NCBI GenBank assembly: GCA_964016885.1 | Contig: OZ024741.1 | Span: forward strand, 104,470,001 to 104,534,000 | From: Eledone cirrhosa | Lineage: Eukaryota | Length of the DNA: 64,000 nt | Reading direction: 5' to 3' | In this document: positions 9,749-49,888 of the stretch, one piece after another | How positions within the stretch are numbered: the stretch's first letter is position 1 | How the letters are laid out: the number at the start of each line of letters is the position of its first letter | Position numbers and translations under genes: made by a program | The notes under the pieces: generated by a model | Told to the model about the DNA's origin: nothing | Databases searched by the model: none | What the model saw: the letters and a program-made list of their open reading frames with translations, nothing else

Positions 9749-9854
9749 GCTGACAATTGTTTCTCTGAACTGCTAGATCTAGAGATCGCTATCCGCTTAT
9801 TTTCACGTTACTCGATCGCCAATACAAAGTTATAACCAGTCAGTTCATCGGAGC
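9749..9854 (-). ncRNA. Hammerhead-like motif with CCGATGA core and long stem II
   Basis: gct-CCGATGA-actgactg..cagttcaga-GAAAC-aatt-GTC-agc; homologous to 40366-40471. Confidence 0.72.
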
Positions 9855-10564
9855 TTGTGAGAATGTTACCCCGTATATATATATATATATATATATATAT
9901 ATATATATATATATATATATATATATATATATATATATAAATATATATGGAGTAATTAAGTATCGAAAGAGAGAAGAAGAAGAAATAGGCGATACATGTA
10001 GTTATTTGCCAATAGCATATGCAAAGGGTGCTCAATGTGTGTGCCAGCAGTGTTAATATCTAGTGGGCGAGAAAATCAGCAGAGCGGATAGACGTGGAGA
10101 AATATATATAAAGGAGAACAAACCGTTAAAACATGTTTATTTAAAATAGCACCTACGTACGTTTCGCACGAAAGGGCTTCTGAAGGGCATAAAAACTAAA
10201 AAGCGTTCCTTACATGACCCGGAATGGGTTTTTAGAAATAAGTTCACGTCACAGTTCATTCTTCGTAACAAAACATGTATTGATTTTGCAGTAGGTCAAA
10301 GGAGATAACTCTAACCGGTGTTAGAGCAGCAATTCTCCATGTGACTTTTTATCCGTCACTTCTTTGTAGTTGCAGCTTTACCATTGTCGATACGCACAGG
10401 ATCAGGTATGCAACGTTATTTTCCAAATGTTTGTTTGCTGCGTCTGCCCGCCTGGGTCGATATGTGCCGGGTCTGGGATGCATGTATAGTTTCCGGATGT
10501 TTTTTGCAGCACCTGCCCGTCGGGGTGTTAAAATTTGGTACAGGGCGACTCGGTTTACGGTTTT

Positions 10565-10810
10565 TTACTCCCCATTCTTATTCCATCTGGAGAAGGACAT
10601 TTTAAAGCGGCGTGTACAGCTTATCGTCGTTTCTGCTTTGCTGTTGATGAGCTCGTGAGGTGCCGTTATGATGTAGCAAAGCTCCATGATGCAAAGCTCA
10701 CACTTTCTCTTGAAATTGTACGGTGTTGCTATGCCGATAATTTCCCAGTGCGTGGAGAAGCTGATGTTTGAGTCTTTTAATGCTGTGATGTAGTTCGCGA
10801 GCGAAGTGGA
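10565..10810 (-). pseudogene. PLE (Naiad-type) GIY-YIG C-terminal fragment
   Basis: STSLANYI..LKD..WEII..CELCIME..INSKAETTISC, similar to the ends of ORFs 30038 and 37642. Confidence 0.75.
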
Positions 10811-11984
10811 GTACATATATACACACACATATACAGCACAAATATATACACAAATAAGTATATGCATACAAACATATATACACATATATACATACATATA
10901 TATATACATATATATATATACACACATATACACACATATAATTACTCACATACATACACACACATACGCACGCACATACACTCAACCACACGTATAGGGA
11001 CATATACACAAATGTAGGTGTATATACATATATCAATAAATATATACATTCACACACACACACACATATATACATACACATATATAAGACTATAGAGACA
11101 GAAAATAAAGGCCTATAATCACCGCATACACACAACTAAAACCGTAAAAACATGCATGGAAACAAATAAAGGTATAAAATAAACATAAACTCACACACAT
11201 GAGAAAAAATACATACAACCACATACACATATTTATATACCTATAGATAAAAATATATATACATACACACATACACACATACGCATATGTACAAGTACAT
11301 ACGCACGCACGCACACACACACACACACACACACACACACACACACACATACATACATATATATATATATATATATATATATATATATATATATATATAT
11401 ATATATATATATATAAAAGTAGAAGGGATATTCAATTTGTAGGAAATCCGACAAATATAAATATAAATGTTTATAACTGATTTAGAGCACTCAAGAGATA
11501 TTCAATGAAATTAATATCTTTGTATATATATACACACACACACACACACATACATAAAGTTACATCTACACATATATACATACATATATATACACACACA
11601 TATATATATACATATATCTATATATATATACATACATATACAAACATATATACATAAACATACATATACGCGCAAAATATATACACACTCACATAAGCAC
11701 GCACACACGCACATATATATATCTATATATATATATCTATAAGTATGTATACGTACTTACATATATGAATACAGACGTACAGTAGTATATATATATATAC
11801 ATACATGCACACACATATATATGTACGTATGGGTTTACCGAACATTTATTATAATGTTCTGTTTGTTTGTGAACAAACAGCCCGATTTAGCCGTACGGTG
11901 TTCGGCAACCATCGTTGCCCTTTTGTTCAACACTGACAAAGGAACAATGAACTATTTTCCCACATACATACATACATACCAAAT

Positions 11985-12602
11985 ATCTGTAGTACTGTAA
12001 TATGATGTGTATTGTGTAAATAGCTTATCATACAAGAGATAAAATAAAAAGATAACATGAAAAATATATTGCCGAGTGTTAAAGACAGAGGCTATTCGGT
12101 GCCAATAAGGTAGCCTAGCCTAGGTTTGAAAACCTTGAAATCCACAGCTAAAACAAAAAGTAAGGATTTAATATACTTTATAAAGAAAATCTATAGTGCT
12201 ATGTATAACATACGATTTAAAGTTAAAAGGTATTAGTCAAAATAAAGAAACAATATATCCAGATTTATTCTGAACGTATATGACGAATGTTGGCCGAGCG
12301 AAAGGTTATTCAGTGTCCATAATATAGCCTAGCTTAAGTTTGAAAACCTTGAAATCCACAGCTAAAACAAAAAAATAAGACTACTGTACAGTAATATACT
12401 TTATAAAGAAAAGCTATAGTTTTGTGTATATGATTTTAAGTTAAATACTATTAATCGAAATAAAGAAACAATATCAAGAATATTTACTGTACTGTACAGG
12501 CCTATATACGCAATGTCGGCAGAAAGTCACTCGTTTAACGATCATTTCGCTTAACGAACGGGTCATTGGAACGTACCCCGTTCGTTAAACGAGGAGTACC
12601 TG
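11985..12602. mobile_element. Tigger/pogo-like DNA transposon end
   Basis: Terminus cgttaaacgaggagtacctg followed by TA, with internal repeats of the TIR motif; other end not seen. Confidence 0.55.
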
Positions 12603-12848
12603 TATATATATATATATTATATATATGTATATATATATATTATATATGTATATATATATTATACATGTATATATATATATATTATATATGTATTATATAT
12701 ATGTATAATATATATTATATATTATATATTATATATATTATATATATATATATATTATATATATATATATTACATATATTATATATATTATATATATTAT
12801 ATATATTATATATATGTATAATATATTATATATTATATATTATATATT

Positions 12849-13030
12849 AATTGTTTCTACTTTTGGCACAAGGCCAGCAATTGCCCAGTGTATTACTGGT
12901 ACTTTATTTTATCGACCCCGTAAGGATGAAACGCAAAGTTAACCTCGGCGGGATTTGAACGCAGAATGGCAAGGGACGTAACTCTATGCGTCAAAGCATG
13001 GCGTCCGACCCTCTACCGATACTGCCAATT
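12849..13030 (-). mobile_element. tRNA-derived SINE
   Basis: Reverse complement of 13637-13822; B-box-like gttcaaatcc. Confidence 0.8.
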
Positions 13031-47700: not shown

Positions 47701-48982
47701 CATCTGCCTTTTGATATGAACGACACAGCTTCCTTGCACTTGTTACATTCTAATCGAACATAGCACATTTGATCAAAGATTCTTCAGCAAAACATAAAGG
47801 ACTTTTCGACCATTGTATTCATTTGTGAGTGCTACAAACTTTATATTTTTATGATTTGAAGTAATCATAATCTTTTTCCTTTTAACTGAAGTGAAGGAAG
47901 GTTAGATATGTAGTAAGCTACTTTCCTCCGTCGCATTGATACCCTTTCTGTGCGAGTTCAGCCAATTGCTAGCAGCGTAGGGAAATGTATCTCAACTTCC
48001 GCCCAGAGGGAGAAATTCCCACTTCTTTTCGATAAACTCTCTCTCTTGCAACCCGACACCGTTCAGGTAAACACCTCTTGAATTCGTTCCTCAAGCATAA
48101 ACAATATGTAACAACAAAACATTCACTACAGGCCTGGCTTACGCCTCAGCCAGTTGACCGTACCTTCTTAAACTCTTAATTTGTTTATCATTTCTTTTGG
48201 CATGCCAGCTAAACCTTGTAATCGGTTTGTAAATAAATTATATGTAAAAACATTATAAAGTCTGATGATGCTATTTACCACAACATTGCCTTTAAGTGCT
48301 TCACTGGTGACTCCTATCGATGCAAAATACACAATACACAAGTACAAATATTAACACATACACATATATATGATATTAAATACTTCTAAAGATATCTAAC
48401 CAAAATTATTGTATTTGTCGTGTTTACCATCTTCAACAACAAACACTAACTTCGCTTACGTGGGAAAGTAGATATATATACACCTGAGAAAGTGGGTAGA
48501 TAGAAAGATATGTAAGTTCCTAGGTAGCTAGCTAACTATCCACCTACTCTTGTGTCTATCTATCTATCTAGCGACGGGTAGATGGATAGATATATCTTGG
48601 TAGTTTGACCGGTACCCTTAAGAAAGAAACTCCTGGCCTTCGAGCCCCTAGTATTGCTTCAAAACTATAAGATATATTATATAAAAATGTTTTCGCTAAA
48701 GCAGACATCAGGTAATCGTTAATCTAATTATCAATTACGAAAATAATTAAATGGATCATAATATATCTAAAATAAACATGCACATCTCTTAGTAATCTCG
48801 GCAAATTGGTAAAGAATGTGTTCTATTGCCATCTTATATAAACAACAGCGACGTGAAAGTTTTGCTGCAAATCGTCTGGCTTCCTCTTTAAGAAGCAGAA
48901 GCAGAAAGACTGTAGAATACAGTGTTCTTGCTCGAAATGAAAATCAAATGAGTATGCCCACACACAAAGGCAGACACACATA

Positions 48983-49518
48983 TTTAACGAAGGGTATAAG
49001 TTAGAATATTGTTAGATGAATTAACAGTTGTTGGATGTAATAACAAGAATAAAGATTTAGTTTATATATTAAGGTTTACTTCACTTCAGTCAAAAAGAAC
49101 AATAATCAAGTTACACAAGTTGCGAAGGGTGACAATGTTATTTTGTTGTTGATGTGAAAACAGGGAACGACCTGATAAAGTTCGTTGGTGTTTGCAGTCC
49201 GTGGTAGTAGTCCTCGTCGTGAGTCTGGTTTAACCTGCGACCAGGAGAGAGAGAGAGAGGGTAATGGTCTGTAATTGACTGTAGACCACTGTGGCCTGTA
49301 GATAGCGGTGAATTCTTACATAGCTGGTCTGTATCGTAGTGCTCCGATCTCTGTGTGTCTAAGGTGGGAAAATATAGGCTTTATATACATGTCGCTTTCT
49401 GTCTCCCACCTTGAGGGGATAGCCCACGCATGAACCTGTTCACACCAAAAGGGTGGTGACCTAAAGTTTGACCTTTAGGTGTCACCCAAGGTTCAAGCCG
49501 TGGACAGATTTCGCTACA
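48983..49518 (-). mobile_element. Solo LTR of the 42624-44749 family
   Basis: Same termini (tttaacga..cgctaca); CATA duplicated on both sides. Confidence 0.85.
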
Positions 49519-49703
49519 CATACGTTACGTACATGTATACACACACACACACACACACACACACACACACACACACACACACACACACACACACACACAC
49601 ACACACACACACACACACACACACACATATATATATATATATATATATACGAATAAGGAAAAGCGAAGTAGTTTCAGATGTTCAAGTCCTTTAATAATAA
49701 TGC

Positions 49704-49773
49704 TGTGATATATATTTCAATGGCGACACTGGCCACACTGTTCGGTGTGCGAGTGTCGTGACATCATCAGACA
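49704..49773 (-). ncRNA. Hammerhead ribozyme
   Basis: tgt-CTGATGA-tgtcacgacact..agtgtcgccatt-GAAA-tatata-TC-aca. Confidence 0.78.
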
Positions 49774-49843
49774 ATTGTTTCTTCCAGAGGGAAGTCTGGA
49801 GTAATCGGAGAATAAGGACTTACACGTTTTCGACATTCCTAAT

Positions 49844-49888
49844 GCTCCGATGATTCCAGACTTCCCTCTGGAAGAAACAATTTTCAGC
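49844..49888 (+). ncRNA. Compact hammerhead-like motif with CCGATGA core; inverted copy at 49770-49810
   Basis: gct-CCGATGA-ttccaga cttccc tctggaa-GAAAC-aatt-TTC-agc (GTC in the inverted copy). Confidence 0.75.

Follow-up and report, generated by a model that had tools for sequence, protein, structure and literature searches.

Hammerhead motifs with a C at core position 4 in amplified Penelope-like elements of Eledone cirrhosa

We analyzed a 64,000-nucleotide (nt) stretch of the genome of Eledone cirrhosa (GenBank assembly GCA_964016885.1, contig OZ024741.1, positions 104,470,001 to 104,534,000 of the forward strand; hereafter the window, in whose own numbering coordinates are given), which contains hammerhead-like ribozyme motifs with a C in place of the U at core position 4 (C4 and U4), lodged in the pseudo-long terminal repeats (pLTRs) of Penelope-like elements (PLEs). 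U4 is one of the hammerhead core bases given as invariant, and it is hard-coded in genome searches. A preliminary description of the window had placed C4 motifs at 9749, 37103, 40366 and 49844, and all four were found there, sharing the layout GCU-CCGA(U/A)GA-stem II-GAAAC-AA(U/A)U-(G/U)UH-AGC. The labels 1.1/2.1, 10.1 and 15.2/16.2 are used in what we take to be their standard sense. The core itself is numbered after the consensus quoted in PMC7151607; this article (beyond its numbering) and PMC3088659, PMC4209133, PMC8557442, PMC9901934 and PMC11167929 are cited from the portions of their text available to us, and statements resting on them extend to those portions. The elements centrally concerned, with their open reading frame (ORF), reverse transcriptase (RT) and untranslated regions (UTRs), are:

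9691..9865, minus strand: 5′-truncated end of a family A4 pLTR (BLASTN, 85% identity to a full unit; subfamily tree)
9749-9854, minus strand: A4 hammerhead, CCGAUGA, 81-nt stem II, GUC; C4 at 9850, predicted cut after 9752 (motif parse)
14283..14344, minus strand: family C hammerhead with the canonical U4 (motif parse)
37046..37706, minus strand: A1 inverted pLTR (655-nt inverted arms, 93%; BLASTN)
37103-37208, minus strand: A1 hammerhead, CCGAAGA, 81-nt stem II, GUA; C4 at 37204, predicted cut after 37106 (motif parse)
37702..39531, plus strand: A1 Hydra-type PLE ORF, RT with C-terminal GIY-YIG, 5′-truncated (ORF list; tblastn, 100% to the full-length protein)
39532..40528, plus strand: A1 3′ UTR and direct pLTR, ending 60 nt beyond the predicted cut (BLASTN)
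40366-40471, plus strand: A1 type I hammerhead, CCGAAGA...GAAA C AAAU GUA, 81-nt stem II; C4 at 40370, predicted cut after 40468 (motif parse, genome matches, fold)
40523..40705, plus strand: A1 "tail" reaching into the 5′ UTR of the next unit, ending ~235 nt beyond the predicted cut (BLASTN)
49767..49818, minus strand: partial copy of the B1 hammerhead in inverted orientation, C4 retained, G8 changed to U, ending at H17
49844-49888, plus strand: B1 hammerhead, CCGAUGA, 20-nt stem II hairpin; C4 at 49848 (motif parse)

Chance would yield 0.02 CC-core matches per window (first-order Markov model of the microsatellite-stripped window, 100 simulations). A stricter scan of both strands returned 21 candidates, mostly canonical CUGA hammerheads of other repeats, and missed the motif at 49844 because its stem III pair is broken. 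The triplet had been given as (G/T)TH, of which GTH stands, but the T at 49844 is copy decay, a private G16.2-to-U change that breaks the C15.2-G16.2 pair; the other central copies of the same family from the same search read GUC where this one has UUC, except one changed elsewhere in stem III. The perfect 7-base-pair (bp) hairpin reported at 49844 is likewise present in that copy, but its seventh pair sits at a position that is mismatched (C.A, A.G, C.C, A.A) in other B subfamilies. The four motifs had been taken for three diverged sequences; they in fact represent two families, since 9749 and 37103/40366 are subfamilies of A (consensus distance 0.12) and 49844 belongs to B, a second Hydra-type family whose protein is ~48% identical to that of A over aligned columns. 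The inverted partial B1 copy next to it stops exactly at H17, where (49767-49773) a four-base microhomology joins it to the 5′ core of another family's U4 hammerhead (49704-49773).

The motifs at 37103 and 40366 lie in the inverted and direct pLTRs of a single A1 insertion. Its ORF is open, as had been stated, but 5′-truncated, covering residues 186-794 of 794 amino acids (aa), with the first 26 codons lying in the inverted pLTR. Whole ORFs are found in other copies: three of the five tandem or inverted loci fetched (L031-L033) are pLTR-ORF-pLTR units with an intact 794-aa ORF, and in one of these (L032) a distance of 3,505 nt separates the two predicted cuts, with the start codon 281 nt past the first and the stop 840 nt ahead of the second. 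The A1 protein has the RWK and DKT motifs and a CxCX5C linker, lacks CxxC in the GIY-YIG domain, and its copies end in (TA)n, all in agreement with the definition of the Hydra clade in PMC8557442. The proteins of families A, B and C (the last described below) are alike in being single ORFs that join an RT to a C-terminal GIY-YIG domain with CCHH absent, B having RWR for RWK; the Hydra-type label is drawn from these motifs, the trees comprising unnamed relatives. Pfam found no domain in the A, B and C proteins.

Searches of the 3.0-Gb animal assembly show that these motifs are parts of large, recently amplified families. With the 40366 region as a DNA query there were 1,405 candidates, and all 40 scored matches were 100% identical over 161 nt. 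A long-stem pattern for family A, with either pyrimidine at position 4, has 2,749 matches (none in the reversed control); by hand count the first 100 listed comprise 76 C4, 23 U4 and one spurious match, and the U4 rows fall in one subfamily group (19/19). In a tree of subfamily consensuses, built with position 4 removed, family A forms a ladder that leads from A8 and A7 through a mixed stage to A5-A2 and then A1 (bootstrap 78-94). Along it, U4 is found in 34 of 36 copies of A8 and both of A7, the mixed stage has four C and three U, and C4 is found in 28 of 29 copies of A5-A2 and all 32 of A1. When A8 loci were gathered with a query without position 4, 28 of 30 had U4, one had C4 and one was interrupted by a junction. 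Copy divergence in the top-scoring sets follows the same order, from 0.1% in A1 to 2.4% in A8. As the older A subfamilies read CUGA, position 4 switches and is not a fixed trait of the family; a U-to-C switch is likely on this ladder, with the U4 of A8 being either ancestral or itself a reversion. CpG decay was considered as an origin of the A8 U4 and set aside, as nearby CpGs are mostly intact in the same copies and only one of the 30 has C4. Separately, the stem II helix of A8 (L133, L159 and others) begins three to four bases off the core, and in later A subfamilies it lies nearer the core and is stronger before C4 arises.

The short-stem motif of family B has 4,444 exact matches with CCGA, 245 with CUGA and 122 with CCAA (G5A), the reversed patterns giving 0, 0 and 1, respectively. 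The U4 copies among those listed are scattered across the stem II types that C4 copies also have. For an older B subfamily, a query without position 4 retrieved 30 loci, with 24 C4, four U4 (one of them the query's own copy), one G and one truncated, and C4 persists in B across ORFs that are ~75-88% identical. Pairing in the stems is also maintained: in 10 chosen copies 94.7% of pair cells are kept, a figure that is not a probability since the copies are related, and two stem II pairs have changed on both sides. The preliminary description had judged the CC unlikely to be copy-specific decay, and this is borne out, C4 being the consensus in young, amplified families. The family consensus, on which it had also rested its case, is divided: the older A subfamilies read CUGA, and young A and B read CCGA.

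A relaxed-core scan of the genome, as that description had suggested, extends the C4 motifs beyond those it had noted to four families, A-D. The loose pattern used gave more matches in its reversed control than in the genome and served only as a lead to C and D. Family C is Hydra-type, with 33% identity to A, and has the U4 copy at 14283 in the window; it has 2,599 matches, of which the first 100 listed are 48 C4 and 52 U4 (hand count), both subfamily states coexisting. In a tree of 40 copies without position 4, which is midpoint-rooted and has many weakly supported forks, family C needs three changes and passes from U to C and back to U. The family D protein displays DKG, YVDD and a CxxC in the endonuclease, along with RVT_1 and GIY-YIG matches, and BLASTP gave no significant match between it and the A protein; D so appears to lie in a PLE clade other than Hydra, and its motif, which lacks loop III, is a minimal hammerhead. 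With any base allowed at position 4, D has 3,719 matches, the first 100 listed being 67 C, 33 U and no A or G (hand count). A tree of 44 D copies with position 4 removed, restricted to those with at least 330 aligned bases, requires four changes, running C to U to C toward the youngest, and the grouping of all C4 copies of D in one clade is rejected by an approximately unbiased test (p=1.4e-4). The 39-nt block of D is otherwise identical between the U4 and C4 states, both of which have been amplified, and no compensating change was found alongside C4 in C or D. Recombination between subfamilies could explain some of the changes within families but not those between families. In all, we estimate ~10,000 C4 motifs in A-D, counting both pLTRs of an insertion; 4,444 of these were counted and the rest scaled from samples.

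Apart from position 4 the motifs have an ordinary hammerhead make-up. The motif parse and folds give a type I topology, with stems I, II and III and the open end at stem I, and C3, G5, A6, G8, A9, G12, A13, A14, A15.1-U16.1 and H17 are all present in the subfamily consensuses. The four window motifs lack U at position 4, as do most copies of B, those of young A, around half of those of C and two thirds of those of D. Independent run contigs (X1), searched with D at 80% likeness, vary in positions 1495-1533 (at 2% of depth or more) only at position 4, where 75% have C, with four variable sites immediately downstream; the other core bases of D are invariant at the 2% level in these contigs. Position 4 thus appears on the trees to switch along lineages (U to C in A, U to C to U in C, C to U to C in D) as the other catalytic bases hold, and by their sequence the C4 motifs are best regarded as a variant descended from U4 forms and not as members of the consensus-core hammerhead. 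Three further candidate patterns did not hold up: covariation of N7 with N17 (A/A, U/C) in the window copies, as CCGAAGA with GUC is common; an altered secondary fold, as 12 motifs gave no consistent effect; and a requirement for U2.1-A1.1, which holds in A-D but fails in C4 motifs from metagenomes.

The trait is a minority one, confined to a few of the roughly 35-40 hammerhead families in the genome (judged by eye). When any one core change was allowed in 600 kb drawn from 60 evenly spaced regions, there were 17 canonical motifs, three U4C and three other single changes, against a background of 0.5; the excess of U4C has p about 0.003 with transitions weighted, on small numbers. Additional C4 motifs were seen in other long-stem families, namely at L077 (minus strand, near offset 934), L154 (plus strand, near 115) and L367 (two copies).

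Beyond this genome, a homologue search returned 71 proteins of 30-42% identity, without context. A first metagenome scan with a single protein had no match, and an alignment of 36 proteins then fetched 78 Hydra-type loci from metagenome contigs (the 80 best of 470 confirmed). Sixty of these have a motif, and the distinct motifs comprise 53 canonical, three U4C and 10 with other single changes, about two of the latter looking well formed. Two of the U4C motifs (L435 and L494) lie on two contigs but belong to one family; they are 94% alike, with a difference at N7, and the family's protein groups on the tree with U4 families at a great distance from A, B and C. The third (L475) was seen once, is well paired and lies next to another element. 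Some contigs labelled as other organisms were not used for comparison across species: X4 has an identical A1 motif together with both D states, for which carry-over is possible, X6 and X7 gave merely near-identical scraps, and X6 and X8 gave none on D.

Past the predicted cut, A1 inserts end at +60 in 21 and at +235 in 29 of 55 A1-like matches, B1 inserts at +45 and +190-195, and D inserts at +120 and +160. Since these ends lie 45-235 nt 3′ of the predicted cut, the template of reverse transcription includes RNA beyond the scissile bond, which implies that either the 3′ hammerhead was uncut or the unit was circular. These ends also match the internal initiation described for an anole PLE (PMC11167929). 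At the other end, among ~27 5′ junctions that could be read, four fall no more than 2 nt from the cut, where ~1.3 are expected (p about 0.04); as microhomology and fold-backs blur the picture, this marginal excess is not counted as a trace of cleavage. Stem III has 2 bp in A and B as a monomer and 3 bp in family C; its palindromic loops favor the duplex over the hairpin (-6.4 versus +2.4 kcal/mol) in most A and B subfamilies, and stem I of A and B folds into an extended, bulged form. Location in the pLTR, orientation in the sense of the ORF and a short palindromic stem III are the features of the PLE minimal (dimer-type) hammerheads, slow ribozymes that act as dimers (PMC4209133; Cervera and de la Pena 2014).

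We propose, with a confidence that is no more than moderate, that the C4 motifs are hammerheads of young, amplified PLE pLTRs, derived from U4 forms. They are likely still able to cleave themselves, probably at a slow rate and for the most part as dimers, and the choice of U or C in them is likely tolerated. The C4 hammerheads would descend from the ordinary U4 hammerheads of PLE pLTRs. A tandem pLTR-ORF-pLTR transcript would be cut at both hammerheads to release a unit with the whole ORF (of 3,505 nt in A1), which may circularize; alternatively, the 3′ site may remain partly uncut. As either route needs merely slow or partial cleavage, a U4C change that slows the reaction could drift to fixation in a master lineage and later revert, a reversion perhaps aided by the mutability of the C-G step that U4C creates, and changes at other catalytic positions would be purged. 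Indeed, the four steps taken by position 4 in D are matched or exceeded by 39 of 140 variable UTR columns; position 4 switches about as often as fast UTR columns, which fits near-neutrality and tolerance. Moreover, a U4C viroid variant is less active in vitro and its infectivity is permitted (PMC3088659, citing Ambros and Flores 1998).

Several observations weigh against this reading. Most A, B, C and D loci were retrieved by patterns that fix the other core bases, and C and D by looking for CC, so that the invariance of the other bases is partly built in; the X1 contigs laid against D and the 600-kb sample of evenly spaced regions are free of this bias. Across 1.85 Mb, the 104 motifs outside families A-E comprise 83 canonical, three U4C and 18 others of 14 kinds, against a background of 10, and U4C (three) is not commoner there than A9U (three). 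The loop of the youngest A motif (ACAAAUGU) forms only a weak duplex (-0.7 kcal/mol). An A1-anchored FastTree protein tree places the root of A at its youngest member, A1, in conflict with the copy divergence and the DNA tree, and the outgroup family of A has both states (by eye, five C, three U and one A among nine distinct copies). Damaged cores have also been copied: G5A is present in both pLTRs of all four pairs fetched (L124-L127, chosen as pairs), with ~8 such pairs among the first 100 G5A matches listed, so that the change would predate or accompany insertion, or else the repeats were homogenized afterwards; and U4A is common to three of 20 loci of the family of the minimal hammerhead at 14757-14797 (minus strand, in an inverted-repeat insertion), whose core was copied at least once. 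With G5A in both pLTRs and U4A in several loci, a single round of copying needs no intact 3′ core. As to the U4A motif itself, it was rejected as a family trait, the family reading CUGAAGA, and is a small copied side branch. Finally, when another hammerhead was subjected to deep mutagenesis, every single mutant of the CUGA region had low activity (PMC9901934), and in the anole PLE hammerhead mutants left insertion in vitro unaffected and none of the RNA reads had its end at the cut (PMC11167929).

It is possible, if only tentatively so, that slower cleavage has instead been selected, with position 4 acting as an evolvable rate dial: unrelated PLE lineages would repeatedly fix U4C and C4 masters out-compete U4 ones, because slower cutting spares the template past the cut, where the RT starts, or gives more stable circles, and reversions would reflect CpG mutability or shifting optima. 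That C4 is the state of the youngest subfamilies of A and of D, and persists in B, is in keeping with such a dial. However, the youngest C subfamily is back to U4, which argues against a fixed advantage, D passed through a middle phase of U4, position 4 of D switches at a rate that UTR columns also reach, and most families here, like the 53 canonical motifs against three U4C in other organisms, have U4. Were the dial real, the PLE hammerhead consensus would become C-Y-G-A-N-G-A, searches would have overlooked thousands of motifs per genome, and in family D the natural U4/C4 twins, which differ at one base in their 39-nt block, would directly test the purpose of PLE hammerheads, since their cleavage rates would either set the activity floor for retrotransposition or show tuning. 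C4 is carried by the youngest, near-identical, ORF-intact copies, in four lineages here and one distant lineage elsewhere, so that published hammerhead counts and claims of "no hammerhead" may need C/U at position 4.

We consider it unlikely that the C4 motif no longer cuts and that its fold now serves some other purpose, such as binding the element's protein or marking the RT start. What PLE hammerheads are for is left open in PMC8557442 and PMC11167929. A loss of cutting would be in line with the low activity of changes in the CUGA turn (PMC9901934), the dispensability of hammerhead activity in vitro for one PLE (PMC11167929), the copying of G5A and U4A cores and the 5′ junctions without a clear pile-up at the cut; yet G8, G12, C3 and the NUH triplet stayed fixed through long C4 phases, position 4 is restricted to pyrimidines, lineages regain the full U4 core, and the viroid U4C variant stayed viable (PMC3088659). 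We consider it about equally unlikely that C4 is as active as U4, with peripheral contacts, dimers or the element's own protein compensating and position 4 as free as N7: the otherwise identical D block in both amplified states, the extended, bulged stem I of A and B and the suggestion that tertiary contacts offset variant cores (PMC3088659) would allow it, but C and D have no compensating change, the N7-N17 link failed, published tests show a loss with U4C (PMC3088659) and most families stay U4 throughout.

Returning to detection, consensus-based searches had been expected to miss C4. This is so for the core searches of PMC8557442, whose descriptor starts with "cuganga" and cannot match, but not for Rfam: with E values up to 10 allowed, its hammerhead models matched neither two C4 motifs nor one U4 family B copy, and as the U4 form of the same motif is missed too, the Rfam miss is not due to C4. 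An Rfam scan of the whole window gave only repeat-driven microRNA matches and no CUGA hammerhead among the 150 of 218 matches listed.

The window also has at least 15 more canonical CUGA hammerheads, of about nine repeat families:

3925-3961, 6378-6415, 6679-6716, 7241-7292, 26016-26071, 28295-28350, 28601-28677 and 29144-29220: canonical CUGA hammerheads
33020-33071, 33186-33221, 34305-34360, 34913-34968, 49704-49773, 50390-50466 and 61172-61249: canonical CUGA hammerheads

Other retroelements share the window. A further PLE at 54054-57215 (minus strand) has a 1,053-aa open frame with a long Asn-rich insert and an inverted pLTR, its arms lying at 53534-54501 and 57844-58915. Fragments of two more Hydra-type PLE ORFs are found at 29402-30556 and 35281-35892 (both plus strand), the former grouping with family C and adjoining the U4 hammerheads at 28601 and 29144. 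From their translations, the Gag- and protease/RT-like open frames at 275-1788 (minus strand) presumably belong to a long terminal repeat (LTR) retrotransposon. The minus-strand fragments at 4839-6269, 52337-53323 and 59029-59631 are what we take to be RT and endonuclease fragments of the long interspersed nuclear element (LINE) type and a piece of a mariner-like transposase.

Among known systems, the closest are the PLE hammerheads of PMC4209133 and PMC8557442, which are likewise type I motifs in the pLTR, in sense orientation, with a short palindromic stem III, a short stem I and a long or variable stem II. A mismatch or extra base sits beside A9, a feature also of the Hydra motifs listed there and of minimal hammerheads, and family D is of the minimal kind. 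At the protein level, A, B and C share with the Hydra clade (PMC8557442) the RWK or RWR and DKT motifs, the CxCX5C linker and the lack of CxxC inside GIY-YIG, and at the element level (TA)n insertion, tandem and inverted pLTRs and an optional tail. Non-LTR retrozymes differ in being non-coding repeats of ~170-400 nt with canonical type I motifs, whereas the units here are of 3.1-4.3 kb and have RT-endonuclease ORFs.

Unlike the published PLE hammerheads of PMC4209133 and PMC8557442, those described here have C4 amplified in four families and switching with U4: U4 is present in each of the 56 PLE motifs of Fig. S3 in PMC4209133, where the core variant described is U3-A8, and in every Hydra row of File S2 in PMC8557442 (Craig et al. 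2021). We found no report of C4 fixed in retroelements in the literature; Lunse et al. 2017 could already contain C4 examples. The preliminary description had spoken of a natural core variant, which holds insofar as C4 is the family norm in B and young A, but U4C was already on record in nature in one viroid variant (PMC3088659). The natural core variants U3-A8, A6C (for which PMC7151607 gives a metal preference), A6a, U13a and U15.1-A16.1 likewise keep some activity (PMC3088659), and all except U3-A8 are described as rare. Unlike U3-A8, which is a compensatory pair, C4 is not accompanied by a visible change in a partner base. Thus, the same core change that the viroid displays in a single variant is here the majority state in several retroelement lineages, with repeated gains and losses.

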